This document shows positions 3,616 through 37,600 of a stretch of 64,000 nt of DNA, piece by piece. The DNA is from Takakia lepidozioides (lineage: Eukaryota; Plantae; Bryophyta): positions 46,686,001 to 46,750,000 of the forward strand of contig CM060734.1 in assembly GCA_030704615.1 (NCBI GenBank). The letters run 5' to 3'. The notes beneath the pieces are model-generated. The model searched no databases. It was not told the DNA's origin and saw only the letters and a program-made list of their open reading frames with translations. The translations under genes and the position numbers were made by a program. The first letter of the stretch is position 1. Each line of letters opens with the position of its first letter.

Positions 3616-3792
3616 AGACAACCAAGTTGTAGCCGAGGGATATGGGCACATACCACCTCGGAAGTGGTTGTGGGTTCAATCCACGGATTGGTGTCACAAA
3701 GGTGTCCACCTTCCTAGCGGAAGGCAATAACTCTTCGGGGTGAAGAGACACCATACTTTACGCTTCCTTCAGGAGGCGTCAAATATTATTAT
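3616..3792 (+). mobile_element. tRNA-derived SINE, copy 1, with 13-bp TSD
   Basis: A-box-like TAGCCGAGGG at 3630, B-box GGTTCAATCC at 3673, conserved body, (TAT)n tail. Flanked by the direct repeat TATATTGAGAAGT at 3603-3615 and 3793-3805. A homologous copy lies at 14525-14706. Confidence 0.85.
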
Positions 3793-5520
3793 TATATTGA
3801 GAAGTGATGTAACATTCTCATTGAATATATGTGAGAAAAATACAAGTAAAAGTAGAAGAGATTTGAAAAGAAGTAATTTTCATGAATCAGTTTTTTTTTT
3901 AAATGGCAGCTTCAAATTTATGACAATGATGTGGTACTATGGCACCCTATTCCTGCTCTACACTAAAACTAGTCTCCGACAACCTTTAGTCGTCACTAGA
4001 ACTTATCCAATGTGCAATGCACACAACGATTTATATTCACTGCACTGCCACCATAATTTCCAGCATCCAACTTCTGCAAAGCAGTGTTTTTTTTTCATAT
4101 TTCCAGCGGGGCCATTTGTGAATTCTACCCAGTGCCCATGTGGCGAGAATAACGAGGTGACAGAGTTAGAAAAGTGGCTATAATCTAGGTGGCACGTTTG
4201 AACTAGTCCACGTCGGCAAGATTAGCCTCTTGGAATTCATCTGCTGGTGTTTTTTGGTGAAAATATCGGATTTTACCCCCCATAATTCCTTTGTACAAGT
4301 AGCTGACCGAGTTTCCACGTAAAGAAAACACTGCCCCAAAGGCAGTTAACAAGTCTGAAGCACGTATTTCAGGACACGTCAGGTATAAACTGAGTTGCAG
4401 GTTTATCATAACTTCCCAACCTAATTTGAGGTTTGTTTTATTCACAAGCTCAGGGTAAACAATGTTGTTAAATTCATTTGTGCATCAAACTTTAGTTCCT
4501 GATTTGGGAACTAATCATTCTAATTACTCTTCATATACTCCGTTTTCATCCGTCCCCAACCCACCTCCTCTCTCATTAGGCGTCATTGGCTCTTTGTGAT
4601 AAATTTATGGCATTGCCTCATGGCCTCACTGATCTTAGCACTGCGCACATGATAGCATAGAAGTAGTTTAAGTCTATCCAAATGACAAGATTAGAGCAAG
4701 TACATGTAAGATGAGGTTGGGCAGCATGTGTGTAGGCTCACGCCTCTGTGCGCCTGCTCATGTGAGCAAAAAAGATATGCCATATATTCCAGGCATATTC
4801 TTGGAAAATACTTTAGTGAAACTAAAATGTGCTTACGCCAAACGACATGCAAAACATTTGGAAAATTTGTGCTTACGTGAGCATAAGCCACACGAAGTTG
4901 GGGCATAGGGAATTTCCTATCAATGCCATCTCCATCAACAATTTCCGTTGATTAATAGTTGCATATCTAATCATGTGATGTTGACGCTCGTAGCAATCAC
5001 TAATATGCGAAACTAGACACAATTCATTTTGTTTTGCCCACGAAAGCATGGTTAATGCCCTACCACAATAAGCACGTAACAATTCGGTTAGCGAGATAAA
5101 ACAACCTCATGTAGTCCCTTATATGCAAAACCAAACACAACTCATTTTGTTTCGCCCACAAAACCATTGGATAATGACGTACGCAATGATACCTTGAATT
5201 TCACTGGATCCCTTCATTTATTTGCTAGCGCAACCCGTTGTTTGCCTCATTATATTAAATTGTTCAATTATTGTTTGGTATTTGTGTGTTTTGGACGGTG
5301 TTGGTTATTGTGACTTTGTTTTTCCCTAATGTGTTATTCTTTTGTAGGATAGCAAAGCTATAAGTATTTGGAACTTGGGGCTTGTAGATATACATTAGGG
5401 GTGCCTATTCGCGTGTAGAACCCCCATTTCTGTCCTTTGTATTCTATTTCTGTGGAAACATGGGTACCCTGCTGCCGTATTTTGTGCTCACGACTCCATT
5501 TTCCTATGCTCACATGAGCT

Positions 5521-5977
5521 TGTGATGGCCCAAACTCTCCTCATCACTAATTCTCTTTATTCATCCATGCGGCGATACTCATTCATCGTATGATTTTTTT
5601 GGCTTAAGTACCGTTAATCCGTTACAATGATGAATTAGCTAGGGTTAGTTAATGATGGTGGCCGCATCCTGGCCATCCATTAGAGCTAAGGATAGAAATA
5701 GGCGCCATGGGCTCAGCTTGTCACGCCTCGCCACACGGCATGCAAGCAAGCAGCTAGGGTTTAGTATAAAGCGGCAGCCTGACACAAGGTCAGGTAGCTT
5801 GTGTACGCCGGTGTATGTTTGTGTGTAAAAGTGTCAATCAGATACGTGTGTGAGATTTTCTGTCAAATGGCTCGCAAAGATCCTCCTCTCGCGTGAATGC
5901 AAGCTCCCCTTTGCTCGCCCTTTGTCATTTTGTTCAATACTTCAGAGGACAGAAGATTATTCCTCCATCTTGTTTTA
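5521..5977 (+). repeat. 5' LTR of family 1 copy A (TGTGATGG...CTTGTTTTA)
   Basis: Highly similar to 7811-8214 and to the reverse complement of 31102-31546. Contains a TATAAA-like motif at about 5765. Confidence 0.9.
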
Positions 5978-5995
5978 TGGTGGAGCCGCGCTGGA
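5978..5995 (+). promoter_or_regulatory. Putative primer binding site (TGGTGGAGCCGCG...)
   Basis: Directly follows the 5' LTR. TGGTGGAG is complementary to a tRNA 3' end CTCCACCA, typical of tRNA-Ala; the match beyond 8 nt was not verified. Confidence 0.6.
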
Positions 5996-6845
5996 TGCGA
6001 TCGTTGTCCTTTCCCTAATCCCCTACAGCGGCGTACTTATGTGATGTGTTAGTGCTCATCGGGACTGTATTAGAATGGCTGAAGCCCATTCCCTTGCTGT
6101 GTTTTTTCTCGCCATCGTGCTTTCATTTTGCTTATGTGCTAATCCTGCTTATTCTTTCTTTTATGGAGTCGCATGTTTCGGTCTCTAGTTGCGTTGCTAG
6201 TCATGAGGAAGAAGGCTTGCACATTCATCTTGATCTGCTTGTTACGCTTTCTGTCAGTCTTGCTAATCCTGCTAACCCTACATCTTTTGCGCCGCCTGAC
6301 ACTCTTGCCCTGCCGGTGTCAATTGTGCCTGGAGTGCTGCTGCTGATGCAGCCCCTCCTCCTAATCCAGCTCCTCTTCTCAACATCCTTTGTGCAGATCA
6401 GCACTCCTTGGCCTTAGATTTAAATGACATATTGGCTGCTTGGGGCTGGTCTAGCCTTCTTGATGATCCTGGTTGATTTATTCCTGTGTTAGTATGTGTG
6501 GTGGATTTATTGTTTAGAGAGAATTTGGATAGTTTGATGGAAGTTCTTTGTGGTGTTCCAGCCTTTCTTCCTAGGCTCCCGAGTTTGTTGTGATTCAGCT
6601 GCTCCACTTTGGTGTGACTATTGGCTTGAGCCTCAAGGCCTGATTTGGCTATCCATAAGTAGTAACAAATGAGGTGAAGATATCATTGGCTGGAGATCAT
6701 AGGTGCATGCACTCCAGACCACCTTATCTAAAGCCCATTGTCTACCTCTTATATGTAGTGCAGTCATGGATGATCAGCTACATATTGCACTACTCCAGCG
6801 ATGTCAATCAGGGCATTCGCCAGTTGGCCTTTCCGAGTCCTTGCA

Positions 6846-7810
6846 TAATGATGAGGAGAGTTGGGCCCATCACATCTGTGAAGCCTACCCCCCACGAAAA
6901 ATCCTGAGCTCCGCGAAGTAAAATATAATGAACAAGTAAATGAATTGATAACATCACCCTCCACTGCTGGGTGACAAACCTACCAAAGGAAAACCTGGCA
7001 CCTGCAAAGTGGGCCGAGGACAAAAACCTTGGCTAAGAAAACCGTGTAGGGAGTACAGGTGGTGACATTAAAGACTACAAATGTTTTAAGTCCTAGAATG
7101 GGCAAGCCATAAGGCCATGAAAGTCACAATCCGCAATCTAGGACTAAGCCGCTGAAGGTCACAAGAGGATCAAGCTGAAGTAGATCGGCTGAGAAGAGCA
7201 AGATATCACCCCACCGTACGTCCCTCCACATTGATGCATGTAAGATCAAAGACCAACTCGGAATGCACTAGATCCGTCAAAGAAACAGGTTCATCCCGCA
7301 CTTCAGGATTGGGTCCTTGGAAGAAGGAGAGCACTAAGGATCTCATTGAAGAAGAACTGAGCTACAACATCACTAGCCTTGGAACGCAAAGGCCGAACTT
7401 CTACCCACTTAGTCAAGTAGTCGGTAACAACACAAAGGTAGCTTCGACCCTTTGATGTGAGTGTGCGGGTCCTACCAATGCAAACCAAAAAAAGTGACAG
7501 ACTGTAGCTCATACAAGATCCGAGCCCTACTAGGGAGAGCCTATGTTAGCACGACAACCGTCACACTTAGAGATGAATTCCGTGACATCCCGGTGAATTC
7601 CTAACCAATAGTAAACCTCTTGGATGCGGACCACGGTTTTCTTGATACCAAGGTGACTTGTGCATACAAAGAACAATGGAAACACTCTAATAAAGCATTC
7701 AACTGGTTCTGTGGTGGCACCTCCAAATAGCATGGCACTCCCCCTCGAGTGAGCTCATTGAATAGCTTATCACCCTTAAAACGGTGAGTAGACACGTGAT
7801 AGAGAATTTG
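6846..7810 (-). other. Inverted internal segment of copy A (integrase remnant, 3' UTR, PPT and first ~30 nt of the 3' LTR)
   Basis: In sister copy B (48770-48810, minus) GAGTCCTTGC continues into GTAAACAAATTCTCTATC. In copy A the sequence breaks at about 6845 and the continuation is the reverse complement ending at about 7810. PPT and LTR start lie inverted at 6850-6895. Confidence 0.85.
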
Positions 7811-8224
7811 ACGATACTCATTCATCATATAATTTTTTTTGGCTTAAGTACCGTTAAACCGTTACAATGATGAATTAGTTGGGGTTAGTTAATGATGGTG
7901 GCGGCATCATGGCCATCCATTAGATCTAAGGATAGAAATAGGCGCCACGGGCTCAGCTTGTCATGCCTCGTCATGTGGCATGCAAGCAAGCAACTAGGGT
8001 TTAGTATAAAGCGGCGGCCTAACACAAGGTTAGGCAGCTTGTGTACGCTGGTGTATAAATGTGTGTAAAGGTGTCAATCAAATACGTGTGTGAGATTTTC
8101 TGTTAGTTGGCTCAAAGATCCTCCTCTCGCGTGAATGCAAGCTCCTCTTTGCTCGTCCCCTGTCATTTTGTTCAATACTTGAGAGGACAAGAGATTATTC
8201 TCCATCTTGTTTTAAGGCTTCACA
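7811..8224 (+). repeat. 3' LTR of copy A (its 5' part displaced by the inversion), ending TGTTTTA-AGGCTTCACA
   Basis: Direct repeat of 5571-5977 plus a 10-nt extension AGGCTTCACA (8215-8224), also seen at 31092-31101 on the minus strand. Confidence 0.9.
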
Positions 8225-8913
8225 AGCCGACGTACGCAAGTCCTCACGGTCTACCAAACCCCATGTAAGATTAGGGCGAGTTGTCGAAAATGAATTTATG
8301 CAAAATTTTCTCAAATCCAATAGCATGGACGTATTTGTTCAAAGTGACGTTCTTGAACCCTAGTCATGTGCCATGAAATCGCTAGCAATACGATGCTTTA
8401 GTTTTTCACCTTTTTCTTCAACAGTTCGTCTATATTTAAAAATATATCCATGAACTCTTTGTAAGCAAGTGATCTTGCCTCTGCTATCTTTTGTAATCGT
8501 TCCAGTTCTTGCACCGACTAATGAAAAGTGAAGAGCAATCTGCCCGACCCATGTCCCCATCCTATGTAGGCTTCTGATTATTCGCATCCATCGCCGAACA
8601 TGCTAGAGCAACACATTGATACTACAAATTACGTAAAACAAGCCTAAACAATGTTGATATTGTTCAAGTAGGAAATGTAATAGGTTTGTCCTTGACGTGT
8701 ATCTTTTCAATAGAAACTAGTGAAGTTCTCCTCTTGGGACAATATTATTGATCATTCTATCATATACTATTATATATATTATTAATCATCCTAGAATACA
8801 GATTGGTCGGCTAATGAATCAGTTAGTATAAATAGTAGGGGCTGGTGTGATTCTATGGAATAATCAACTAGCTACAGACTGGGCAACAACATCTGCTGTC
8901 AGTTGGTTGATCT

Positions 8914-11696
8914 TCAAGAAAACTTCAGAAGGGAAAAGCGGATATCAAGAGTGCGCTGGTGTGTGAAGAGACCTGCATCCTGCATGGGCAGCACCCATGC
9001 CTCTTCCTCAGACTCGTTGTGGTGACTGTGCCACCAGCCTGGTGGTGTAACAAACACACTTCCCGCCTCCCATTCCACCCTGGTAATAAACCCAGATAAG
9101 AATTTCCAAGTTAAATAGCAATATGAAAGTGAAGAGTGACTGTGATTTTGGCTTGCATAAAAAAAAAAAAAAAAAACAAAAGAGTGACTGTCTTGACTGT
9201 CTGGTGAAATAGGAAAAGTGTGAAAAGAGAACCCCCTTTCTGATATATAACATTTGAAAGGGTAGAGAGTTCTCTAATGCTTGATGCCTGAATACCAAGG
9301 CCCTTTCATGAGGTATCGCTGGGCCAGATTCATAGTCTGGAAGCTCTGGACCTCTCATTGAGGACATGCATATTCCCTTGACCAATGAGCCTCAAGCAGA
9401 ATATTACAAAGATCCTCTAGAGCCTGACTATCATATCAGATACCAGTCTCCTCAACTTAGAGCGAGCTTAGAACACGATATAAGAGCATACCTGATTGGA
9501 TTGAGGACCCATCCATCGCTGTCAAGCTCCTCCCCCATTAGTGTATATGTCCCAGGTGCTGCATGTATTGCCAAGTCTAATGCTGTTGAGTTGTGTCGGT
9601 GTGGTCTCTGCACCTCTCCTGTGTAATAGTAGACTTACTTCAGCTTTCAACACTTAAAACACGCCACTTCTTCCCTACTTGTACTTCCTACAAATGCTGC
9701 CAGGCTAGTGGAAATTTAATGAGGCAAACCTTCCCCAAAAGGATGGATTTCCAACCTGGAGGTAACACATTGAGCAATGACCAAAGTGTATGTGACAGAG
9801 TCTTCGTCTGCGGAGTAGCCGAGTTACCCAGTAAAATCCCCAGTCGGTTGCGATGTCTCGCTCCTGGTTCATGCCTCACTCTCTCCACATTTTCAAGCAG
9901 CTTGGATCGACTGCATGAAAGAAATTTTCGTCACACAGTTGGTGAGGTTCTCGACCTCTGAATCAATTAGTGCAAATTTCTTCAGAAGTGCCACCACTCA
10001 GCCCCCCGTAAGCAGAAAGCATAAACTGTGCAAGGTTCTAAAGCCCTCAAAGGACAAATCTTTATAAAGTATTTCATTGATCATTGTGAGTTCAAACTTC
10101 ATAAGCTGAAGTCCAACTCTCCTCTGCAAATCACAACAACTTATGGTAGCTCTTTGAGTCAACCAGAAAAGTGATTTACATAGCTTCTTTTGCGCCCTCA
10201 TCATGTGCATTGTATGGACCACAAGGGTTACTATTACAGTCTGGATCCCACTCAAGAAAAGCTCCTTGACTTCACCAGAAAAGTGATCCAGACAACTTGT
10301 CAGGTCATGATTGACAACCACTTGCAGAACTGAAAGAAATGATTTGCAAATGCGCTCGATGCTATGGATCCACATACATGTACTATTCTTGCCAATCACT
10401 GAAGGTTGAGTAAAGTTGCGCAATGGGTAAGTCCATAACTTCAATGTTTAAATGTAATAAGTGCATAACTGTGTGACAAGTGTTGATGCGCCTATTGGAG
10501 AACGGGAACATACACTCTCCCAGGTCTTCCATGCCAACTCTATCCCTCTACCAATAGGCAACAGTTGTCTCATTTCTATGATGCAACTGTTATACTGGTT
10601 TACACTTCAAATGATTGTTCTTCATGTCCCTTGTTGAGACCAAGTGGAGTAGACACAAATGGAAAGTTATTGGCTGTCAAAAAGCTTTGGGTACTATACT
10701 GACAACTACCAACCACTAGCCTGGATTATATTGTCTACTGCATAATGGTTACTGCAAGGGTACAATACCTGTCCAAGGTAAATCACTTGAGAGTACATTT
10801 TTCTCTCTCGCTCTCTCTTCTCCCTTTTGTTCCACCCAGAGCAGGGTCTATGGCCACAAGGCTTGGCAAACAACATCTTATAAGTACATTCTCTGTTTCT
10901 TCCATGAGCCTTTGGGTGGCATCACCCATGGATGTTTGAAAGTTTCTGTCCTTCTCTCTGGGTAGGAGAAAATCACACTACTCTGCTGATAAGAAGCTTA
11001 CTCTGCAGATAGTGGCGAGTGAAGTTCAGTACCTGAAAAAAGCAGGTTGAAATTTCTTGACTTTTGGAACGACTCCAAGATATGATAGCAATGGAGCATC
11101 GGTCACCCAGTACAATCCTGCACCACCTGTGTCTTCATCACTAAAGCATGTGTGTGTACACCTCATTTCTTCCTGACTTGAAGGCAACACAAAGAGGTCG
11201 CCTTTGTTCCATTCTAGATCACCAAGCTGTGTATGGGTCTTGCCCTGACCGTGAATCACATAGAATGCCTGCAGCATGGCACCAAGAAGAAATTTTTAAT
11301 GCAAAATAGAGAAAGAGATGGGGGGCTCGGCCAAGAGGAGTAGGGTTGGTTCGTGCAACAAACCTGTGAAGTTGCGCAGGCATTTGTGGTCAAGCTTTCC
11401 CCAACACAAACTCTCACGAATGACGCCAGCAGGTTTGGAGAAGTAGCAGGATATCCATCAATGCCCATGGACTTGCTGCTATCCAATGGGGTGATTCTAG
11501 AAGGTCCTGAAGTGTGCTCCTCTGCTTCTAGCTTTATAATCGGGATAGGTAACATGTCAGGATTTGCCGAACTTGTGTATTCGAAGATGTCAGTTGCTTT
11601 GTCCCATTCATCATTTCGTCGAGACACCTTCACTCCCTTGGAATCCACGGTAGAAGACAAGTCACATGTGACTGTCTGCACACTTGATGCTGGCAT
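8914..11696 (-). CDS. Intact 5-exon bicupin (gentisate 1,2-dioxygenase-like / RmlC cupin superfamily), 338 aa
   Basis: Exons 11696-11364, 11268-11033, 9910-9756, 9618-9492 and 9079-8914 total 1017 nt with all GT-AG introns and the frame preserved. Motifs: ATSPNLLASF, ATSQAFYVIHGQG..WNKGDLFVLP, RNRLGILLGN, QRPHRHNSTALDL, VFVTPPGWWHSHHNE, QDAGL..RTLDIRF. 5' UTR exons probably extend toward ~13060 but were not resolved. Confidence 0.9.
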
Positions 11697-16361: not shown

Positions 16362-19300
16362 TCCCTCCTAAAGGCAGGGCCAGTAAAAAGGCCAGAAGGG
16401 ACCTCAGGATAAGCCAAGCAGAAAAACAAAACAAAACAAAGTAGAAACTATAATAACAATAGGAATAATGTAAGAACTTAATAGACGTGTGAGATCTGAT
16501 AGTACTTTCGTCGGATTTGGGCATCCTAGGCTCCTCCGGCGGGGCCCCTGTCAAATCCTCCCCACCCCATCTTACCTCGGTTTCACTATTAAATATAAGA
16601 ATCTATGTAGGTTCCAAGCTGTGGTGGGTAGCATGATGGTAAGGTGATAGCATTACAGGCAACGAAGTTGGGAGCCTCTTGTACTGTAACTCGGGTATCC
16701 GTGTAACTCTCTAGAACCCGTCTCTCATGTAACCCTGGCTTCTCTTGTAACTCTAGTTAGTCCATTTTATACTTAGCCACATATGGTCTTGGTCAAATTT
16801 CGAGACCAACTGTGGGTTACACCCACGGGAGTCACACTCCACTCTGTGTAACCCGAAGTGGAGTTACACACCTCGTCGTGTACCTCAGTGTAACCTAGAC
16901 TGGAGTTTACAATCCTTCAGTTCAATGTCATTCTCAAGAGAGGGTAGGAAAGATTTGACATGCGAGAAACTGGTGTACCATCATGTCAGAGGTTGCATGT
17001 GTGCATTAGTTCTTACATTATTTCTATTATCTTCCTATTATAAGGGCAGGTTTACACACGAGGGCCAGACATGCTCTAACAAATGGCACACGAAAACCAA
17101 AAATTCCCTGCACGGTATGATTTTTTTTAGTGTCAGGGGTAACCGGATTTGGGTGGTGTCCAAGCATGTGACCACTCACGTGGCAGGCTGGGAGGCATTT
17201 CAGATAATGCCCTATCCAACCTAGAAATTTGCTCTGAATCAAAAAAAAAAAATGGTAATGTACTTTACATTGGAGCAAAGCATAGAGTGACCTTGGATTT
17301 CTAGTAGAATTAGACATTTTAGGACCCTTGGTTCACTACAACAAATTGGGGAAATCTACCACCTAAATTCACATACAAAGCAACCCCCTAATTTCAGGTC
17401 TTTCACTCTGAAATTTCCAGAGAGCACCTTCAATGTGCCCCTATTTTTATTTTTATTTTTTGGAAAGAAATTGTGAATCGGGAGGCCATTCACCCAAGAG
17501 AAATATGAATATTGAAAACATATGGTCAAACCTGTCATGTAATTTTAATTTGGGTTCCAATTTTTGTCATTTCTTTTTGTTATAATCTCCCATTTGCAAC
17601 GGTCGAACGTGCCCAGATTTTGTGATGGTGTTCATGTCGTCGGTAGGGATGACATTGTAAGGGGGAATAGGAAGATATAGCTAGTTTAGTCAAGGTATAT
17701 GTTTTTTCGCAAAGGTGAAAAACATTAGCTGACCTCCGTCCCTTTCTTTAAAAAGAAAAGAAAAACTCATCACTAATGGTGTTGTGGCCTCCCCATTGTC
17801 ACTTATGCATGTTTGTTTGAGGGTAACATTGCGTCGTTTTCTTTTTCCTTTCAGATGATTTCCATGGTCAAGAGTCAAGAGGTCTTCTTAGTATGAGAGT
17901 GTTGACGACTTGGAGACAAAAGTGGTGCATATTGCTGTTAAGAGCCAAAGTTTTGTATAGTAGTGTGGGCGGCTATCATTTTGACTCAACTATACAAGAC
18001 TCCCTAAATAGCCTCCTCAAAAAAGGTATCTTGGTACAATGCGGGGATGGTATTTAGAAATATTTATTTTTTTGACATACCTTTTTTCATAATATTGGAC
18101 CGGTTGGCGGCTATAGTCGGTCATCTGGGTGTAATGACCGGTTAGAGCCGGTCAACTAAGCTGAGTGTAGTCAACGCGTCATAAATCGTATGATTCAAAA
18201 TACACGTATATACCCAAAAATTAATTATGACCCAACCTTGTATACACAGACTTGAGGTTAGATTGCAGATGAACTGGGATGAAGAAGCACCCTGAAGATG
18301 AAATGTGGTGCTTCAAGAGAGCTTTCCAACGCGCTTTACACCATGCAAATTGAGTAAATGCGCTGCCCAAAATCTTTTACAGATATCGCATGGCAAGAGG
18401 GACGCCGCGCCGGTTGACCAGCAACGTGGCATCCTCAGAGTGACTGGAAATGCGAGTACCATGCAGGGAGGTCATGCCTTTTCCGGCAGACGTCTGCCTA
18501 AACTTGCCAACCAATGGACATGTCACATAAATCCACATCTTTTTTAGAATTTTGTGAATTTTCTCAAAACCTTTTTACCGGTGTGTTGCTGGAGTCCCCT
18601 GCTACACACCCACCGTATCCCTTTTTTTTCTCAAAATTGAGGTCCCAGCTGCATATTGGGTAAGGGGTGTGAGAAATTCTCAATTTGCACCCCCTTGTGG
18701 TCACATTCAAAGTGACCCATCCCAAATTTTGGTACCCGAAAAATTGAGAAAGCCATTGGTCAAACCTACATTGTACCATATTTTCTCCCCAAATTTGTAA
18801 AATTAGCCATTTTCTTTTTATTGAAACGGTGAAATTTCTCCAAACTTGCAGGGAACCTGCACCATGGCCTTACCTTCCATATCGTACAGTTCATCCATGG
18901 TGACAAATAGCTACAAAAAGTTACAGTGTCCAGATGCAGGGTACGTAGTGTTTTTGGGCGAAAATGCCAAAACAGACGTGGACGTTTAGGGGTTAATGGC
19001 GTTTCATGTTGCATCATCCATATCCAACGGTTGGTGATGATACATGATTGTTTTTATCCATGTCGTGCGCATACATATCGCTACACAACTACATCGCTGT
19101 CCAAAACCACACAACACATGTGCACGCCACACACTAGTATATCACTAGTCCACCACTAGTCCAGCCACTAGGCTACAACTAGTCAGTCACTAGGCTGCCA
19201 CTATGCTGCCCACTATGGCAGTCACTAGTCCACACAATCGCCCCCCTAGCTGGTGCTTAGGTCCCTCTAAGTCCAGGTAGCCACAAGATGTGATAGTGAC

Positions 19301-19496
19301 CATAGCCTCACTAAGTCCTCCACCACTATCCCTACTACACTCAAACTCGATAGATCAAGAGGCCGGGTGCAAGAGTTGCCCCATCATTAGTCGCCGTCTT
19401 GCAACCTGTGAACTTGAGCTTGGGATCTCATGTATTGACTCCTATGAACTTGGCCTCCCATGTCTTGTTAGCTGCCTCCAGTCATGTCCACTGCCA

Positions 19497-19640
19497 CTAT
19501 CCCAAGCAGTGTGGACACAACCAATCTCCGTCAGGAACCTTCTCAAGAGGTGGAGTCAAGCATCCCATATCCCGACCCCTTGAGCATCGATCACACACCA
19601 GCATGGTGGCTGCCCCTTTGGCAGACCCACAGAGCATGCA
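19497..19640 (-). pseudogene. PHD zinc finger at the integrase C-terminus
   Basis: CMLCGS..MLVCDRCSRGRDMGCLTPPLEKVPDGDWLCPHC has C4HC3 spacing with the PPL..VP.GDW.CP signature; the ligand His is mutated (WH to RD). Confidence 0.9.
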
Positions 19641-19699
19641 CCTCAAACCTGCAGGTACCACTGTCAAGTTTGGGTCAACTCTGCCATCGACATTGGGAA

Positions 19700-20950
19700 G
19701 GTGACATGGCGCACAATTACGGACATGGTCCTTCCAAGTCATGCCATCCCGACCCTCCAAGATAAGGACCCCTGAGGGCAACACCTCTCGAACTCTCAGA
19801 ATAATACGCCCTGCAGTAACATCCAAAGTCGTAGGAGCAGTCTGCTGCAAATAAACATAGTCACCAGGGCTAAACCTCCGAACCCCAGGACGATATCCTC
19901 CACCACGTATAGTGGCATGCCTCAACGTATCACGGTGCTGTGCAATGGCAAGGTTCTCAAAAGCCATGGGCATGACTTTCTTGAACAACTTTGCACACTG
20001 ATCACATGCATGTACCCACACGTCCGGATCGTCAAGGTTAAGGACTTGAGCAGTGTCCCTACGAATGGCTGCAGGCAAATCCGGCTCTCGGCCAAAGAGA
20101 AGGAATATGGTGAGAATGAGGCAAGTGATGCTTGTTTGCTGAACCTGTAGCCCATGGTTAACCAAGGAACCTGAAGATCCCAATCTCCTAGGTGTCCCTT
20201 CTGCAAGCCATACTTGCGCAAACCCCTCTTCACCGTCTCAACAACTCTCTCTGCCAAGCCATCGGCCTCAGGATGATCCCGAGAAGTGGTGTGGTGGTCT
20301 ATCAAGGCTTTATCACACAAAGCCTGAAACTCCCCCAAGAACTCTCTCCCTTGGTCCGTGAGTACCTCAGCTGGAGCACCAAATCGGCTAAGCACACGAT
20401 CCAAGAATGCATACGCAGCCCCCTCACTAGCCTTGTCAGGCAATGGAACCAACTCAATCCACTTGGAGAAGTGCTCCACCATCACCAATATATATCTGTG
20501 GTGGCGCATAGTCAGTGGCAACGGTCCTGCGAAGTCAAGACTCCATCTGTAGCCCAATCCCATGATTGGTAAAGGATGCAACTGTGGTGTAGGGGCTTTG
20601 AATGAAGCACGTATCCTATCACACACCATGCACCTAGCCATGAACTGTTGCACCTCTGTATGCATACCACGCCACCAATATTGCCCCTGTAGTAAACTGT
20701 GAGTGCGTCGCACTCCAAAATGCCCCAACTCCTCATGGGCATGCCGCACTAACCGTGTACGCTGTGTGGGATGAGGCACAATCCTCACCCGACCATCCTC
20801 CCACACTCGAAGTAGGTGTATCCCCTCCCACTTGAACCTCTTGGCTCGTTGCAGGATCAGATCCCTCTCCCTGGAAGTCACAGTGGCTGCCGTGTCTCCC
20901 GTGCGGAGGTAGTCCAACACAGCCAAATCCTCATGTATATCTCTGGCACC
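19700..20950 (-). pseudogene. Gypsy integrase
   Basis: HHCC (HEELGHFG...CMVC), DDE core (WSLDFAGPL, VLTDQGREF, ADGLAERVV), frameshift near 20100, then SH3-like RFSPGDYVYL. Confidence 0.92.
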
Positions 20951-21469
20951 ACTTGGCTCATCACTAGCCTTAGGGTCCTCAGACACTCCGTCTACAGTCA
21001 TCCCTGTTATAATCCAACCTGACCTCCCGATGCCAAGAGACAAAAAAATGCAGATGTGTGTCATCCCAGCACCATCTCCTCGTCCGTCTCACCATGCCAC
21101 CGAGTTCCAGTGTCATCCTGCTAGCTCGTGCATGGATTGTACTCAATCTATCCGCATCCCGATTGACCAAACCTGGTCGATGCACAACCTGAACATGTCT
21201 CTCATGCTCCTCCACCGTAGCACGAGAGGCAAAGCAATTCATGTAAGCCTCAGGAACCGCCATATACGTTGTCTCTCTCCTCTAGTTACAATAGGTCCAA
21301 TGTCAGGCTCCCAATTGTCCTTCGTAACTGCAACCTTAAGTCCAGCAGACTTAGAGGTAGAGGACGCGTCCCGTGGTTGCTATGCCGCAACCTCTTGAGC
21401 AGTACTCTATGCCTGCTCAGTCAATGACAAGGCCTCATCCTGCCCCACTCTTTGTTGCTCAGCCATAGC

Positions 21470-22420
21470 CAAGCTGATAATCCAGGTCAAGCAATTTAGA
21501 TCCATTGCTTGCCCCAACACCAGACGACGTGATGCCACAGAAAGAGAAGGCACCGCCGTGGTCCCAGTGGAAAGACCCATAGCCCGCTCTCGCTCGTCGG
21601 CATTCGGCTCCACTAATTGCTGCAACTGAGCATCCCACAGGAGGCCAGGTCCACTATCCCGGAAAGCATGCGATCCTGGGAAGCTGAGCAGTGTAGGTAA
21701 TACTGCTCGTGGTTGATCCATCTTGTTGACCACTGCCAAAGGCGAACGGTCATCGTGTCTCACACGCTGAGACTGCCTCCCTGTGTCCAGAATGCTATCC
21801 ACTATGAGATGTGCTGGCCGCTGCACCCCATCAAATGCACGCTTGAGCAGTGCGGATGGCATCAAGTTAGTCCATCATAGCCGTGGACGATGAGCCCGTG
21901 ACCCCACTGTAGCTGCATCTAGCAACACTGCTGACCCAAGCCACGACCGGACTTGATGCACACTGGCCATCACCCTGGCCCGAGAATCGCCCATTAGTGG
22001 CACATTCTCCAAGATGTATGCTGGAGATACAGCGTGATGAAGCTGCAAGTGGCACAAAACCCGCACCATCTCCCAAAACAGACCCGACCTCGAGTCTCGC
22101 AATCCATTGTCATGCCCGGCTGATGAATGCCCTTGGCAGGGCCAACCTGCTACTACCAGATCAATGGAGCCAACCCGCTCCAAATCTTGCGCCCCCAGCA
22201 ACGAAATGTTTGCTGGCAAGGCCTGCTGATGTCCACGAATTGCAGACACCGACAACAACTCAGGGTACCACTGCACCAACTGAGCAACATGGCGAAGTGA
22301 AACGCGTCGTGCAGTCTCATCCCTCTCTACATACGGGTAACGCTGAACTCGTACACCTGCCTGTAACACAACAGCCAATCCGGTGCTGATCCCGCCAAAC
22401 AAGTCCAGAAAACAAATGCC
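21470..22420 (-). pseudogene. DNMT3-like C5 cytosine DNA methyltransferase domain within pol
   Basis: Motif I FLDLFGGISTG (~22400), II YVERD, IV DLVVAGWPCQGHS (catalytic Cys at ~22137), SGLFWEMVR, VI YILENV (~22009), VIII AHRPRL*WTNL (TGA at 21875-21877), IX ERERAMG, X RRLVLGQAMD. All are in one frame and in canonical order. Confidence 0.92.
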
Positions 22421-22849
22421 TTCATCCGGATACTTACACACAATAGGTGTGGTGTCCAATGGAGACAACTGAGGTGGTCCTGGTGCAATCCCCACACTTT
22501 CCTCCTCTCCTGACGGTACAAAAGCCTCCACCCAGGCTTGTTGCACCCGTCGATCAGCATCCCGCTGCAAATCCTTGCTCGTGCCCCACAATGGAGTCTG
22601 AGAAACCATGGTAGGCAACTCCGCCATACCATACATGTCATCCTGCTCTCCCGGAGGTGGCACATCCTCTGAATGAGCGTTGCCCTCAAGCAACTCTCTA
22701 GGCCAACTCACTGCCGCTGTGAATACTGCTAGTGTCGGCATCTTGCCTCGCTGGGCAACCGCAACTCCTCCTACGAACGTCACAGGGAGCTGCACACACC
22801 AGCCCTCCCCTGACTGCCATGCAGGCCTATAGGAAGCTGACTTCTCCCA

Positions 22850-23200
22850 AAAATCCAGGGTGAAGCCCATGGGGTACAACACTGCCCCACCAACCAAGAC
22901 ATTGTATGACACCGCGTCTGTCACAATGGTCTTGGCTTGCATCACTGAGCCATCTGTAGGGTGATCCGGCCGTAGTCTGATAGCCAACTCACGCCGTGTC
23001 ATGCCCCGAGCCTGTTTCGATCCTCCCAGAGACGTCTGTATCTGGAAAGGACAATGTTCCATATCCGCCTCCGTGAGGCCCAAGCCTGCAATAGCAGCTC
23101 TGCCCAGCATCAACCGCTGAGCTCATGAGTCCAACAAGACCCGCAGTGGCCGATACCTCTTGCCTGCCGGTCCACTCAAATAGAAAATGTCATCCTGGTT
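22850..23200 (-). pseudogene. Aspartic protease (retropepsin) with a nonsense mutation at the active site
   Basis: RVLLDS*AQRLMLG (DSG motif, G codon replaced by TGA at 23123-23125) ... YNVLVGGAVLYPMGFTLDF. Confidence 0.85.
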
Positions 23201-24403
23201 GTCTAACATGACAACTCCAGGTGTCACCATGGCGCGCTCAATGGCTGGCCTAGCTGGCAGCTCCATCAACCTGGCAGCTGCAGCTTGCCATGGCGCCGCC
23301 GTGGCAGTCTTGACCCTCAAATCCGAGGATCCCTCCGGCACTTCCCTGAGCTTCACTTGAGCCCCCTTGTTGCCTTGAGCACGTTGAGGTAGTGGTTGGC
23401 TAGAAGCACCACTACCCCGTGGTGTCTCCTTAGCAAATCCCACCATGATCACTCGTTCCTCCACCATGTTGAGCTCTATCCGCTCTACCAGCAAAAACAC
23501 ATTTGCTAAGGTGGGTTGGGCCGCTTGTAGGAGAGTTGCATCCCGCACCCTTCTCCTCAGCTCCTTGTCCAATATCCCATACCAGAATTGGACTGCCTGA
23601 GCTTCCATAACCCCTTGGGTTACATTTATCAAGCGCCTCATGCGAGTGAAAGCCTCCCTCAAGCTCTCGGTCGACTTCCGTTGGAACTCTTGCAAGCTCC
23701 GCAACTTCTCTGTCCTCACCCCTTGGTAGTTCCCTCTCAACTCTTCGAAGAACTCCACAACAGGGTTGAAGGCAGGCACGGGTACTAGTGCTGGTGCGGT
23801 AGTGGCTTGGGTGGACGTCGTAGCTACTGTACCACCAGTCCCACTAGTCCCACTGCTACTTGCTGAAGCTGCCGGTGCAGCGGCAGGTGTAGCCACTGCC
23901 CTCGTGGCTCTAGTGCTCCTAGTGATGGAGACATAGTCGGGTGACCAGTACATCCTCCACTCCTCGATCTCAACTTCATGCCCCCGCCTGAACTCATGGT
24001 AATCTTCCATAGGCGGCCCCTCAAGGTGCTGAAACAACCCCTTCCATGCCATGAAAGGCGTAAATAGTTGTGGATTGCGCATTTGCTGCAAATCACACCA
24101 ACTATCAAACTCTTGGATAAAATCATCCAACTTGATGGTGCCCACCGCCCCAGAGTATCTTCGTGGCCCCTTGGTAGCTCCATACATCTCCTCCATTGTG
24201 TCCCACAACAATGGCAAAGAAACAACTTGCACCGCCGATATGAGTCCTCCTGATTCACAATCCGAATCAGAACCTTTCGTAGAAGACACAGGAGGTGAAG
24301 GTGGCCTAAACCGCACACCTCGTCTCGTGTACCCACTAGTATCGCTAGTGCTCGAACCGGCACTGTCCCCAGCAACTAGTGGCACCTCCGTGTTGACACT
24401 CAA
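23200..24403 (-). pseudogene. Gag of family 2 element
   Basis: ORF 23123-24403: YSGAVGTIKLDDFIQEFDSW..LEGPPMEDY..FQRKSTESLREAFTRMRRL..QFWYGILDKELRRRV is a retrotransposon gag-like pattern, in frame with the protease. Confidence 0.75.
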
Positions 24404-25140
24404 CCGGTCATGAACATGTCCCTAACCCCCTCTCCACAAGGTAACCGGGTAGAGAACCTGTTGCGGCTTATGGTTTGGAATACTAAGTTCCTAACATAGC
24501 CTACACCTGTACCTGCATCCACCGCAAGCACTCCTATGGTTGGCTGGTCATCACCTCCAACCTCACCACAGGAGAAACGATGATGGTCTGGCTGGTCATC
24601 ACCCCAGCCTCACCATCGACAGCATGCTCTAGGACTGGCCGGTGATCAAATCCGGACCAATCACCTATAAAAAACAAGCGCCCACACAAAACTAGCATGG
24701 CGCACAGTCGAGCATGCAGGTATGGAGGGGATCCAAACACAAGAAATCAGAACGACAACTCCCCCACACCAAAAACAACTCCACGGTGTTGCTCCTGCAA
24801 GGACACCCCAACCCAAACCCGGACTGACTCTTGCCTCCACCTACGGAAAGGTCTTGGCCTAATGAGAGAGTGGAAACTACGAGGAAGAGAAGCTAAAGCA
24901 ATGCCTAACCCCAGCATGCCCTCATCCCAACACTCTTCCTCTCCTCTCTTCCCTCACTTGCATGACCATGGGAATATCATGAAGATACTCCTCAAACCGC
25001 CCTCCACGAGCTTCAAAATTCGGCCTTCAAGACCACATGTCAGTCCTTAGGCAGTCCACCAGTGCCTCCACGAGTCAGCACAGGCCGTCCACAGGTCAAC
25101 ACGGGCCACCACAGACCAGCACAGGCCCACACAGCTCACT

Positions 25141-26232
25141 GGTCACAGCCGTCACAGCCCACACAGGCCACAGCCTGTCACAACCCATCACAACCCCAAA
25201 GGCCATAGGCACAGCCTCTCACAGCCCTACAAAGGTCACAGGGGTCACAGCCCCAAAGGCCACAGCCTGTCACAACCCCTCAGAGCCCGTCACAGCCTGT
25301 CACAGCCCTACACAGGTCACAGGTGTCACAGCCCCACAAGCCACATGGCACAGCCTGTCACAGCCCTACACAGGTCACAGGGGTCACAGCCCCAAAGGCC
25401 ACAGCCTGCCACAACCCCTCACAGCCCGTCACAGCCTATCACAGCCCTACACAGGTCACAGGGGTCACAGCCCCAAAGGCCACAGCCTGTCACAACCCCT
25501 CACAGCCCTACACAGGTCACAGGGGTCACAGCCCCTCATAGCCCATCACAGCCCCACAGGCCACATGGCACAGCCTATCACAGCCTGTCACAGCCCTACA
25601 CAGGTCACAGGGGTCACATCCCCAAAGGCCACAGCCTGTCACAGCCCCTCACAGCCTATCACAACCCCACAGGCCACATGGCACAGCCTGTCACAGCCCC
25701 TCACAGCCCTACACAGGTCACAGGGGTCACAGCCCCAAAGGCCACAGCCTGGCACAGCCCCTCACAGCCCCTCACAGCCCACAGGGCACAGCCTGTCACA
25801 GCCCTTCACAACCCGTCACAGCCCCACAGGCCACAAGGCACAACCCGCCACAGCCCATCACAGCCCATCACAGCCATCACAGCCTGTCACAGCTCGCCAC
25901 AGCCTGTCACAGCCCGTCACAGCCCCCCAGGCCACAGGGCACAGCCTGTCACAGCCTGCCACAGCCCATCACAGCCCATCACAGCCTGTCACAGCCCCTC
26001 ACAGCCCCTCACAGCCCCACAGGCCACATGGCACAGCCCCTCACAGCCCATCACAGCCTGTCACAGCCCTACACAGGTCATAAGGGTCACAGCCCCAAAG
26101 GCCACAGCCTATCACAGCCCCTCACAGCCCCATAGGCCACAGGGCACAGCCTGTCACAACCCCTCACAGCCCCTCACAGCCCCACGGGCCATAGGGAACA
26201 GCCTGTCACAGCCCCTCACAGCCCCACAGGCC
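25141..26232. repeat. Complex minisatellite built from ~11-bp TCACAGCC(C/T) units with higher-order blocks
   Basis: Dozens of (G/C/A)TCACAGCC units, plus a recurring block ACAGCCCTACACAGGTCACAGGGGTCACAGCCCCAAAGGCCACAGCCTG. Confidence 0.95.
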
Positions 26233-26699
26233 ACTCATGACAGTTTAGCCATTTCTCCAAGGGGTTTAGCCACGCCAAGCTAGGGTTTGTGTCTCTTGGA
26301 CTCTAGGCTTCTTTGCACCGAGCTATGGCGGCTGTGAAGAAATCAGCAAGGTATTCTTGCTCTTTCGGCTCCCACACACCACCAATAGTAGCCCTAAGCC
26401 ATGAGGAAGATAGTTGCCACAAACCAAGCCTTCTTTCTCACTTAGACTCCCCAAACACGCCACTAAACTCAATGGCAAACAACCAAGCCTTGCTGGTTTC
26501 CAGCCCTTGTGAGCACTCATTCAAGCGTTTTCCTTGGCCATAGTATCTATCTTAGAGCCTATTCCAGCCCTCTACACCTGCCACTTCAAGAGCCATGCTC
26601 TATCTAGGCTTGAGGTTGAAACCCCAACTCAGAACACGCTCTACAAGTGTCGGACCGTCACATAAGAGCAGATCAGCCCCTTACCTTCTCTTCTAGTTC

Positions 26700-27090
26700 T
26701 CTAAAGCTTGAAAACAAAAGCCCAATGGATTGAAGGCATGCTCCACACATGCCCCACTCTCACCACCAGAGAATCAACCCCTTTGCTTTCTTTCTTGCAC
26801 CCACCAACCTGAAAATACACGCTTCAGCGGGCTGGAAGCATGCTCCACACATGCCCTACAGGGAAACCAGCCCATTCCTTCCTTTCTTGCACTCCCAAAC
26901 CTGAAAGTACAAGCCTTCAACAGGCTGAAAGTATGCTCCACATATGCATTGCTCTCACATAAGGGAAGTCAGCCCTTCCCTCTTCCTTGCTTGCCCTCCA
27001 AGCTTGAAGATGGAAGCTTCAATGAGCTGAATACATGCTCCACACATGCAACCTCTTCACACAAGAGGTATCAGCCCCCTATCTTGGCTC
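26700..27090. repeat. Degenerate ~100-bp tandem repeat (4 copies)
   Basis: Core ATGCTCCACA(C/T)ATGC at about 26738, 26840, 26933 and 27035, each followed by a CAGCCC/CAACCC pyrimidine-rich tract. Confidence 0.7.
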
Positions 27091-27920
27091 CTTAGCTCCT
27101 TGATGCTCTCTAAGACAAGACTAAGCACTCCACAGCCCTTGCCAAGCCCCTGAAACCCTAAGGCTTACATTTCCAGCCACAAGACACTCCTCTTGTGGTG
27201 CAAGAGCTCTTCTTCCAAGCTCTGAAACCCTAGGTGCACATTCCATGGCCTTGCCGCACCTCTTAGCTCCTGCTCCAGCCCTGCTCTTGCCATGACAAGA
27301 GCCCTCTCAATGCTGAAGCTCGAGATTGAAACCCAATCTCAACATACTCCACAAAGTGCACTGATTTGCCCCAAGCCAAATCAGCCCTTTCACTTGGTCT
27401 TGCAATCCTGCAGCATGGTGCTTTCATCTCTGAAGCTGAAGATCGAATGCCAAGGTCTACCACCTCGTAACCCGCATCGCCTCCGCTTCTAACAACCAAG
27501 AGTTCCACGGTGCTCCTTGCATAACAACCTGGTTTCTCTCATTTTCAAGCAAAAACCACAAGTGCTACAACTAACTCGTATCTAGCACTCATAGATACGA
27601 GCTCATCTTTCTCGAGTGATAAAGAAGAAGAATACAAGCACAAGCTCATGCGAGCTCACAAAGCTAAAGCATAAAATCATGCAAATATAACCTCATCACT
27701 CAAATACAAGTCAAGCCAAGTGCACCCCACGCCATGGGGAATCCACACTACGGCGCCATAGCTAGGTGCGGTGAGGCTCAACTCGAGAAAGATGAGCCTC
27801 CCGCGCTTGCCGTGAAGATAACCACTCCAGGGCCTAAATCTGCCTTGACCCCTGGATTGACACTTGGGCCAAATCCCAAATGTCAATATGTAAAAGCTAG
27901 CTATTTCCTAGCTGGTTTCA

Positions 27921-28870
27921 CACTAGTGGTAAAATAACTTGACATCCAACTTAATGCGTCCAGAACGTATTTAATGCGTCCAAGACCGATTAAATCACTG
28001 TTGGGCGGGTATATTGATTTCAATATACACTTAAGGTATAAGTAAATTTTTCTTTGTCAAATCATTTACCCTCCGGGTATGGATAAATTAACTTTTCAGA
28101 TTTCTATACAACCCCCGGGTAAGGATATATATGCCAAAACATACCCTGAGGGTATGGATAGTTTCCGGGTATGGATAATTATTTAAATCAATATATAATT
28201 TAATGGTTTTTAAGATTGTGATGTTTTTCAATACAAAACAAAAGAAACAATCTATGGTAATAGAGAAAATTGATGAGATATTGCATAATATTTTGGCTCT
28301 AATTCCCAATGCAAGAGGAAGGAGGCTTGAGATTTAAAAATATATATATGCAGGATCTGGAGAGGTTTTCTTTGGGTTATATGACATTTTAGGAATGATA
28401 GATATGTAACATTTTTTTTTAGCTGTGATTGGAGCTTTCTTACAGCTGAAGGCTCCCTAACTACACAACAAAAAGAGAGAAGACCTAGCACATAAAGATT
28501 GTAGAGGCACTAGTATTATGTCCCAAAAAAATCCCTCCTTTATTCTGCATAGAAAAAAAAAGTCCTAGATTTTGCTAGATGGGCGAGATTCCCTAAAAGT
28601 ACCTCCACGCTAAATGCTACCGGCGTCAAATGCAATGCTACCGCCGTGGCTATGTTACCTTATATACCCTGAGATATATCATTCATTTTCACATATACCC
28701 TTCGGAAGAGTAGTGTATATTGGACTTCTTGATGCAGGTAAATATAAGGATAAGGGTATACATCCAAGTACCTAAACTTACTTGCCACACCATTATATAT
28801 ATATATATATATATATATACCTTGATAAACCCGCCAGGTATATCAGGGTAATCGATATATCTGCCCAACA
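27921..28870. mobile_element. Possible degenerate CACTA-type end with subterminal motifs
   Basis: CACTAGTGGTAAAA at 27921, followed by repeated ACCC..GGGTATGGATA / ATACCC motifs. No partner TIR or TSD was identified. Confidence 0.3.
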
Positions 28871-34619: not shown

Positions 34620-37600
34620 CTAGACCATAGCACAACTGGCCTGGTACCTCCCATGTGGAGCTTGCCTCCGCCTTCTACCATTTTGCCTCTGCCTTGCAAG
34701 TGCATTCAAGTTGGCAATGGCCAATTCATCTGCCTCACTCAAAGGAACACAAACAGCAAGCTCAGTCATGATGTTATAAGGAATTTCAGGAGGCACCATG
34801 CCTACATAAGTGTCTCCCTCACCCAGTGCCACTTCTGTAATATCGTGAACCACTGTCGGGATCGAGGGTCCTTGTGAAGGACCACCTTCCAGTTCCCTCG
34901 TGAACTTTTTTCATCCGAGAAAAAAACTTGCTCCACCTGACTAGGGAATGTCCAGGGCTGCTCCATCCGAGGTAACATGCGACTGAAGTCAACCAAGAGA
35001 AAGCCATAATCATCTCGTTTCATGGTGGCATTCCGGCCCACCATGTGTGACCTCACCCATCTACACAAGAACAGAATTGGGTGAAGAATTCCGTAATCCA
35101 GTTGAATTATTTCTGTTACAACACCCACATATTCCAATTGGGATAACACTCGTTTGGACATACCTGCTCTATTTTCGCTTTCCTGATGGAATACTTGAGC
35201 AACTCCAGAATCAAATGTCACCCTGTCTGTGGCGCCAGTCCCATCACGTATTGCTCGAAAGTGATTGCCGTAAGCATACATGGACTTGAAGCCCAAGGAC
35301 TGTACTGCTGGTGGTATACATAAATGGCATATGTCCAAATCATAGGACTCACCTGAACTCACCTTGCGTTGGACAACACCTTCAATCCATTCATGGAATG
35401 GAGCCAGTAAGCGCATATCTGTTGGGTATGAATTTCTCCATTGTGGTGGTCTTGGTCTTGTCCACAAAGGAATGTTGTTCTGAACTCAGTGCGGGATGCT
35501 TCTATGAGTGCCATCTCCTCTTCATAGGCCCTGTCCAAATGAGAATTGCAAATTAGGATTACAGCTTATACCATTGGCAGAAATGAAACACACAGGATAT
35601 GATAAGCAACATACTTACTCAAGGAATGGTTTCATGCAATCTGTGTTGTGCAAAATATACTCGTGTGCACTGTCTCGTTCTTGAATGGTGAGGACTCGTA
35701 CACTTCCCAATCCTTGAACCACCTCCCCACTAACTGAGTCTTCTTCATTGGAGTCCCACACCCTTCGGCTTGTAGCATGAAATTCAGCCATATACTCAGT
35801 TAGAAACCCTAGGGCCTCATCCAAAGCATACCCTTCCGCCATGCTCCCTTCAGGTCGGCTCATATTCCTTACATAGCCTTTTAATGTCTTCATATACCGT
35901 TCCATAGGATACATCCAACGGCTAGACACGGGACCACACACCTCCAATTCGTCCACAAGGTGTACAAGCAAGTGAGTCATGATATCAAAAAATGACGGAG
36001 GGAATTCTTTCTCCAGCAGACACATAGTGATTGCAACATCTTCTTTTAAGGCCGGTAGCTCAGTTGGATTAATGATCTTTGCACACACTTTTCGGAAGAC
36101 TCGAGAAAGCCTCATAATTGCCATCCGTGGACCCTTTCCCAATACCCCTCGAATGCAAAGAGGTAAAATCTGCTGCATCATTACATGGTAGTCATGGGTT
36201 TTCATTGTAGACAGTTTATTGTCAGCCACATGTTTCTGGAATGTGGCAGCATAACCTGTGGGGGCCTTTACTGCAGCCAATGTTTCCAAAAACAACACCT
36301 TCTCATCTTCAGTAAGAACATATGGGGCCAAAGGCTTCACCAACTTGTTCGGGTGAGAGGGATGGGGTCTCAACCACAAGTGTTCACGAATGACATTGAG
36401 TTCCATATCCTTCCTAGATGTGGCTGTGTCCTTCTCCCCAAGAATGGTTCTCAGCACATTCTCACACAAATTTTTTTCACAATGCATCACATCCAGTGTG
36501 TATCGGATGAGTAAGTCTTTCCAGTATGGCAATTGGTTCAAAACAGTGACCCGTTTCATGCCATGTTCCTTTGAAGGGTCCTGTTTTCCCCCCTCAGCCC
36601 CTCCCATTGCGAGATACAACTCTCTGGTTTTAGCCCGGTCAAATTGCTCACTTGCAGTGACCACCATAGGAGCTGCTCTATGTTCCACATGTCCATTAAA
36701 GTGGGACGAGTTATTCCTATAGGGATGAACAGCAGGCAAGTATCTCCTATGACCAAGATACAAAACTTTTTTGCATGCCTTCGAGTACCTGGAATCAACA
36801 TTAGGGCCGCAAGCTGGGCAAGCCTTGTATCCCCCGTGTGCGCATCCTGCTAGCAACCCATAAGCTGGAAAGTCGTGGATTGACCACATCAAGATGGCCC
36901 TCATGCGAAATGACTGTTGCCCCACTAGGCTACTTCCATCCAATGCCTCCACACCAACTTCCCACAACAATTTTAGCTCATCCACAAGGGGCTGCAGATA
37001 AACATCTGCATTGTCATTTCCCACAGATTGTGGTCCAGGAATCAATAAAGCCAACATCGTGAAAAATGGCTTAGTACACAGCCAGGGTGGAAGATTATAG
37101 TTTACCAACATGACAGGCCAAGTTGACCATTTGTTTGATTTATCACTGTAAGGATTGACACCATCCCATGCGAGACCCAATCGCAGATTTCTGGGGTCCG
37201 CTGCAAACTCAGGCCATTTTTGGTCAATGTGGGCCCAAGCCTTGCTGTCTGCTGGGTGCCTAACCAAGCCATCCAGACTTCGATTCTTAAAGTGCCATGA
37301 CATTAACTCTGAGATGGATTTGGCTTTATACATTCGAAGCAGCCTTGGAATGATAGGGAAATGTCGAAGGACCTTACGAGGTACTGGTGTCTTTACCCAC
37401 CACATAACGACGTGCCTGACATTTTGGACAAACCTCCAAATTCTGAAGCTCCCTTCTGAACAACACACAGCCTTTCGGACATGCATGTATACTCTCGTAA
37501 TGAAGCCCGAGTTCCATTATGAGTTGTTTTGCCTCATAGTGGGACTTTGGCAGGCAATTGTCTGCTGGCAACAGTTGTCTTCCTAACAATGTAAGGAGTT

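Follow-up and report, generated by a model that had tools for sequence, protein, structure and literature searches.

The PHD finger at 19,497-19,640 closes the integrase of a plant Ty3/Gypsy element, here a dead copy from a high-copy family, and the same element carries a DNMT3-like methyltransferase that is parted from the integrase by a conserved in-frame stop. In keeping with this, the pairing of histone reader and DNA-methylation writer proposed in an earlier note on this DNA holds for the element, not for one protein or for a coupled module in the clade to which this copy belongs. The reading favoured here, at a probability of roughly 0.55, is an element of the order Gag-protease-DNMT3-UAG-RT-RNase H-integrase-PHD, in which the PHD would tether integrase to nucleosomes and a separate DNMT, made at the level of Gag, would methylate the DNA of the element. 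It builds on the observed domain order, the conserved stop with its context, the conservation of the PHD and damage that is specific to this copy. The features within the window (the whole 64,000-nucleotide stretch that was analysed) are as follows, with L004 denoting a related element described below.

19061..19496, minus strand: 3′ non-coding part of the element (depth step, loose contig ends)
19497..19640, minus strand: PHD finger (C4HC3 type) and stop, end of the integrase ORF (Pfam PF00628, codons, run depth)
19641..20102, minus strand: integrase C-terminal region (60-74% identity to nearest relatives; L004 model)
20105..20983, minus strand: integrase H2C2 zinc finger and rve core (Pfam PF17921, PF00665; frames; indel)
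21031..21223, minus strand: RNase H tail and RT remnant of ~30 nt (tblastn; run X12 contig in pieces)
21227..21379, minus strand: start of ORF2 (pre-RT linker), in the ORF1 frame (translation, N-termini of relatives)
21374..21382, minus strand: in-frame TAG then CAA CCA, ORF1/ORF2 junction (context, run comparison, L004 junction)
21455..22420, minus strand: DNMT3-like C5 cytosine methyltransferase domain (Pfam PF00145, DNMT3A PDB matches, motifs)
22800..23160, minus strand: aspartic protease region of ORF1 (tblastx to L004)
23351..24196, minus strand: Gag (capsid-like) region of ORF1 (weak Retrotrans_gag match, below cut-off)
25159..26237, no strand assigned: ~10-bp tandem repeat array upstream of gag (self-comparison; GC-skew block)

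The finger is read on the minus strand from 19640 to 19500 as C4-x-C3, ending at the stop 19499-19497, and comes after the zinc finger, core and C-terminal region of the integrase, the frame of which shifts near 20103. It matches the Pfam PHD model PF00628 (E 1.1e-8, 35.4 bits against a cut-off of 24, model positions 1-47 of 47), confirming that the integrase ends in a PHD finger as the earlier note had read it, and the cut-off is passed even with seven of the eight zinc ligands, all seven Cys being present. The mutated His ligand that had also been described was found, with Asp at codon 19571-19569, although the damage is wider than stated since the preceding aromatic position (codon 19574-19572) has become Arg, giving two damaged positions rather than one. 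Family copies were compared with the window through four of 14 listed public sequencing runs, from three samples, and in all four more than 99% of the depth carries another reading at both positions, such that the damage is private to the window copy. Among related PHD segments His is kept in 118/118, its loss being specific to this copy.

The rest of the copy carries further frameshifts near 21247, 21139 and 21011 and stops at 23125-23123 (protease, inside the active-site motif), 21877-21875 (DNMT) and 21409-21407. About 1.25 kb of RT/RNase H found in other copies is missing, with the contig of run X12 split across 21193/21223/21227 and loose ends there in runs X1, X3 and X5. There is a weak hint that the RT/RNase H-deleted form is present in more than one copy; two short contigs (X1, X3; one sample) span both deletion points at 21162-21252 with 7-8 differences. 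The copy breaks off at ~19061 against a low-depth flank (loose ends at 19061-19063 in X1, X5 and X7), and self-comparison of this truncated copy found no LTR or terminal repeat pair within the 64-kb window. At the other side the 10-bp array is probably inside the 5′ region of the element, sharing with it a GC-skew block at 19001-28000; a diverged 102-bp repeat lies at 26658-27078, upstream of gag and within the same block. The Gag region is 56-60% identical to the N-termini of Marchantia ORF1 proteins, and the protease segment of L004 gave a weak Asp_protease_2 match (E 8e-4, below cut-off). L004 carries the Gypsy order PR-RT-RH-INT, of which the window has remnants. In run X1 28,975 contigs align to a 3-kb stretch of the element, and the summed contig depth is ~1e6 on the element as against 130-210 on the flank, a figure that denotes very many copies and not a copy number.

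Elsewhere the window holds remnants of CACTA-type transposases at 34805-38015 (minus) and 56504-60449 (plus), which are ~71% alike and contain Transposase_21, DUF4218 and DUF4216, a LINE-type endonuclease ORF at 39829-41220 (minus), an ORF with an NIF phosphatase-like domain at 44996-45874 (plus), and distant Gypsy remnants at 47900-50320 (minus) and 7300-7690 (minus) with ~30% identity to the PHD-DNMT family.

A search with the integrase tail recovered 130 longer proteins; among the 120 matches listed, 116 have a precomputed PHD and the named hosts are Marchantia, Calypogeia, Klebsormidium, Pleodorina, Chlamydomonas eustigma, Haematococcus and Cymbomonas, with the relative P0005 coming from Coleochaete. 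Two relative searches combined gave 118 PHD segments from 144 proteins, and the zinc ligands, the lack of which would count against a PHD, are complete in 112/118. The dN/dS of 0.075 for the PHD, calculated from one nucleotide pair (L003 against L004), is indicative of purifying selection. In an AlphaFold2 model of the natural L004 integrase tail the C-terminal region forms a long helix and a small beta-barrel, and the finger, with a pLDDT of 87-94, superposes on the PHDs of ATXR5, BAZ2A and UHRF1 at 0.8-1.5 A over ~50 residues, and whole-model TM-scores are low, the finger making up a quarter of the modelled chain. Most of its sequence and fold matches are PHDs that bind H3, and it resembles the readers of unmodified H3, KDM5 PHD1, ATXR5, CHD4, BAZ2 and UHRF1.

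Two residues before the His, which we take to be the position of the K4me3-cage Trp, 109/118 segments have Gly and 1/118 has Trp, and judged by this position the PHD of the lineage lacks the aromatic cage with its invariant Trp. Reading of K4me3 requires such a cage (PMC3241642; this and the other published sources are cited from parts of their text). In KDM5B, D328, P347 and W351 contact Arg2 and Ala1 of H3 (PMC4225485), and in an alignment to KDM5B PHD1 the equivalents of D328 (as Asp), P347 (as Pro), G349 and W351 (as Trp or Phe) are kept in 116, 116, 96 and 116 of the 118 segments, respectively. Readers of unmethylated K4 use acidic residues, one before Cys1 and an acidic wall for Lys4 (PMC3241642, PMC5415848), which are absent from the window PHD itself. 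Among its 15 nearest relatives an acidic residue before Cys1 was seen in 2/15 and an acidic patch in 0/15; in the 103 distant relatives the counts are 73/103 and 75/103, respectively. With the Ala1 and Arg2 contacts kept and the K4 residues missing, the PHD of the window clade is likely to bind the H3 N-terminus, with sensing of K4 not predicted, and the analogy with the ADD domain of DNMT3 drawn in the earlier note finds no support in this clade.

The methyltransferase domain retains motifs I, IV (Pro-Cys), VI and VIII, and DNMT3A chains are the top 16 of its 41 PDB matches. In addition to its premature stop, the window copy lacks ~208 nt just downstream of the domain, at 21446. The domain is intronless and unrearranged, with its catalytic motifs inside the element. 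In the relatives it occupies one of two positions, and Gly-x-Pro-Cys is found in 14/16 of the upstream-type DNMTs while the internal-type DNMTs keep the Cys in 31/34, often as Glu-Cys. In a tree made by a quick method from 51 domains of at least 270 aa and one outgroup, with host DNMT3 left out, a single branch (SH-aLRT 95) divides the two positions, a topology that fits one capture with relocation and two captures alike. The proposal of de novo methylation gains nothing from the published Klebsormidium relative, the DNMT of which is under purifying selection and gave no methylation in a yeast assay that its authors call inconclusive (PMC5890265).

Between the two domains, the TAG at 21382-21380 lies in the Gag-PR-DNMT frame and is followed by CAA CCA, in agreement with the leaky-stop context CARYYA that has been reported as a readthrough signal (PMC3441728) and that follows only 6 of the 1595 TAGs in the 64-kb window. 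The complete run comparison over 21150-21470 contains 19 differences at >=15%, none of them on the nine junction bases, and the TAG and the next six bases thus have no alternative letter at >=15% in any of the four runs (three samples), while the stop close by, at 21409-21407, is unique to the window copy. L004 has an open Gag-PR-DNMT frame of 1162 aa, then TAG CAA TCA, then an open RT-RH-INT-PHD frame of 1047 aa in which the first Met is residue 117, inside the start of RT, with no Met before RT. With 49% identity to the window element in the DNMT and 68% in the integrase, L004 is a distinct element, an independent relative with the same stop layout. In a damaged copy, L001, two TAGs are followed by CCA, an imperfect match to CARYYA, and an ATG comes three codons beyond the stops. 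The junction was observed as DNA in these three elements only, with ORF2 in the ORF1 frame at 3/3 junctions and an exact CARYYA in 2/3 (window family, L004). At the protein level, 9/17 hand-picked ORF1-type proteins end 91-95 aa past DNMT motif X and the ORF2-type proteins begin just before RT; in the window the start of ORF2 has no Met in the 44 codons preceding the frameshift near 21247. Folding of the 120 nt after the stop in the three elements, performed with no shuffle control, gave no shared RNA structure. The ends of the L004 unit (1-9285) are identical over 127 nt, marking it as a circular assembly unit, and a poly(A) run lies near 8200. The L003 and L004 contigs sit in a genome record labelled as an uncultured cyanobacterium, probably as plant or algal DNA in the bin.

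The conserved stop in the window family and in L004 runs counter to the claim that one polyprotein supplies both activities. Judged from the reading frames, DNMT and PHD would be together only in a readthrough product, ~1000 residues apart and in the company of the element protease. The split is not lineage-wide, because P0015, which falls inside the window clade, runs from DNMT to PHD in one open frame and 30/51 relatives carry the DNMT before the integrase in the same ORF.

The nearest named relatives are from the land plants Marchantia, Sphagnum and Calypogeia and from Coleochaete, and more distant ones reach the chlorophytes, where the DNMT is in another position. Of 51 PHD proteins that span RNase H to integrase, 30 have the DNMT between the two and 21 do not; these 21 include one with a DNMT upstream in frame and two clusters (L001, L004) with it upstream of the stop. 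In an integrase tree of 67 rows, made by a quick method and rooted with the integrase of a distant Gypsy remnant in the window, the window and 18 other rows in which RNase H adjoins integrase form one clade (SH-aLRT 99). Rows were included if they had an integrase of 200 aa, a PHD and an informative junction, which excluded the Klebsormidium protein P0092, having no PHD match. P0076 and P0085 lack a DNMT at the RNase H-integrase junction and are placed among rows of the internal-DNMT type; P0076 has a PHD but no DNMT at any point from protease to PHD. The PHD is fixed on the integrase while the DNMT has moved or been lost, and two independent modules explain this better than an obligate pair would. 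The metagenome and genome scans gave two relative loci each, including L002, a distant Gypsy, and the viral contigs searched held no relative of the element.

In algal-type relatives the tail after the PHD contains a Tudor-like stretch and then an amino-methyltransferase-like domain. Ser-Pro-Pro-Phe is present in 11/45 tails of >=280 aa (P0025, P0026, P0029, P0052, P0055, P0062, P0071, P0072, P0083, P0084 and P0097), 10 of which also have Asp-Pro-Phe-x-Gly upstream, and the MethyltransfD12 matches are weak and below cut-off. These motifs suggest that some algal-type elements have the order RT-RH-DNMT3-INT-PHD-second MTase, in parallel to the EpiLTRs discussed below.

Three other explanations bear on how the two domains are related. 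A coupled, ADD-like reader-writer, in which the PHD brings the DNMT complex to chromatin unmethylated at H3K4 and so permits de novo methylation there, would account for the travelling together of PHD and DNMT across green plants, for the 30/51 proteins whose ORF has the DNMT immediately ahead of INT-PHD and the one more with it upstream in frame, and for the distant PHDs, most of which have the acidic features of unmodified-K4 readers; a readthrough product would also contain both domains before processing. Such coupling nevertheless seems improbable, as in the window clade a conserved stop and ~1000 residues separate the domains and the acidic residues for K4 are missing in the 15 nearest relatives, P0076 has a PHD without a DNMT and P0085 has none between RNase H and integrase, and the DNMT occurs in two different places with the PHD always on the integrase. 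If the PHD were instead an accessory of the integrase that serves a non-histone partner or the stability of the intasome, with no chromatin targeting, the nearest clade could do without both the cage Trp and the acidic K4 residues, and some PHD fingers do bind non-histone proteins (PMC3241642). Against this, and making it an equally doubtful account, are the Ala1/Arg2 pocket residues kept in 116/118 segments and the H3-binding PHDs that make up most of the sequence and fold matches.

It has also to be considered that the stop is real and that Pol is expressed from a spliced or sub-genomic RNA, from a non-AUG start or by reinitiation, in which case DNMT and PHD would never be in one polypeptide. 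Readthrough is deduced from context alone, and the ATG of L001 three codons past its stops would suit such a route. We nonetheless regard it as unlikely, to the same degree as the other two, given that ORF2 is in the ORF1 frame at all three junctions, that the CARYYA context is exact at two of them yet rare after TAGs in the window, and that L004 offers no Met before RT.

In the favoured reading of a Gag-level DNMT and a nucleosome-tethering PHD, ORF1 (Gag-protease-DNMT3) would be translated up to the conserved UAG. With the TAG parting DNMT from integrase-PHD, the DNMT would likely be made in Gag-like amounts and RT-RNase H-integrase-PHD only by readthrough, by analogy with other retroelements in which in-frame stops set the Gag:Pol ratio (bioRxiv 10.1101/2022.12.06.519325). 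Cleavage by the protease would then leave the PHD on the integrase, where it would anchor the enzyme on nucleosomes by gripping the H3 N-terminus at Ala1-Arg2, with little discrimination of K4, and so may affect the choice of insertion sites. Processing of such Gag-Pol polyproteins by the protease is well established. The DNMT, as a separate product, may methylate the DNA of the element independently of the PHD. More tentatively, the lineage might have two modes, a land-plant type with a leaky stop, in which a particle-abundant DNMT3 pre-methylates the cDNA and a PHD-integrase chooses nucleosomes, and an algal type with a fused DNMT-INT-PHD, a K4me0-type finger and a second MTase-like domain. 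If true, this would make a Gypsy lineage spread across green plants the carrier of its own complete epigenetic kit, and genuine reader-writer coupling could operate in the algal-type fused elements.

Gypsy-DNMT3 elements, PHD-bearing Gypsy elements and elements with chromodomain plus DNMT are each already in print. KnitGypsy-Dnmt3 of Klebsormidium (de Mendoza et al., 2018, PMC5890265) likewise has the Gypsy domain set and an unrearranged Dnmt3-like domain inside the element, and Klebsormidium nitens P0092 is among the relatives of the window integrase tail. It differs in that its DNMT is in the Pol ORF, whereas the window family and L004 have it as the last domain of ORF1, ahead of a leaky-type stop, a difference that lowers exact membership of the streptophyte 'Gypsy-DNMT3' (the name used in bioRxiv 10.64898/2026.05.21.726589), not kinship; P0015 does have its DNMT within the Pol ORF. 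For the DIRS-like split terminal repeats of the streptophyte Gypsy-DNMT3, the window copy offers a truncated element with no terminal repeat pair and L004 a circular assembly unit. A PHD is never named in the main or supplement text of PMC5890265; this covers the text alone, and Fig. 4c might depict one. PHD-bearing LTR elements of Chlamydomonas include REM1 (Perez-Alegre 2005, as cited in PMC6673714 and PMC8557442) and Gypsy-7a_cRei (PMC9940879), and PHD fingers have been called common accessories of Chlamydomonas transposons (PMC6673714, PMC8557442, PMC9940879). As here, the PHD is an accessory domain of green-lineage Gypsy elements for which chromatin contact is suggested; the difference, in a comparison by description, is that no methyltransferase is named in the parts of those descriptions that were available. 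In the text of mainly open literature, figures aside, there was no report of PHD and DNMT3 in one Gypsy element, of a readthrough split in the Gypsy-DNMT3 lineage, of two DNMT positions across green plants or of a methyltransferase-like tail in algal-type relatives.

The EpiLTRs/DAM-LTRs, which combine a chromodomain, a DNMT and an adenine methyltransferase (bioRxiv 10.64898/2026.05.21.726589), similarly join a histone reader to DNA methyltransferases in LTR elements, but theirs are a chromodomain and a DNMT4-related enzyme, stated to be distinct from Gypsy-DNMT3, in place of a PHD and a DNMT3-like domain. Chromoviruses resemble the window element in having a reader domain at the integrase C-terminus (REXdb, PMC6317226); no Pfam Chromo match was found in the window or in 36 protein scans. 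The text of PMC6317226 names neither PHD nor methyltransferase and reports that the moss Phygy clade prefers NCGN insertion. In Tj1/Tosmo of fission yeast an in-frame stop also holds Pol below the level of Gag; in those elements it stands between Gag and the protease, while here it comes after both protease and DNMT. A DNMT before a leaky stop predicts many DNMTs and few integrases per particle, and this position points to the cDNA of the element, rather than PHD-selected chromatin, as the substrate, which bears on why retrotransposons carry their own DNA methyltransferases, a stated open question (PMC5890265). Marchantia polymorpha has members of this lineage, and its chromatin maps allow a comparison with their insertion sites. 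Set beside these systems, the window element belongs to a known kind in a layout not described before, and the two DNMT positions and two PHD subtypes of its lineage are a natural comparison for reader-writer coupling.
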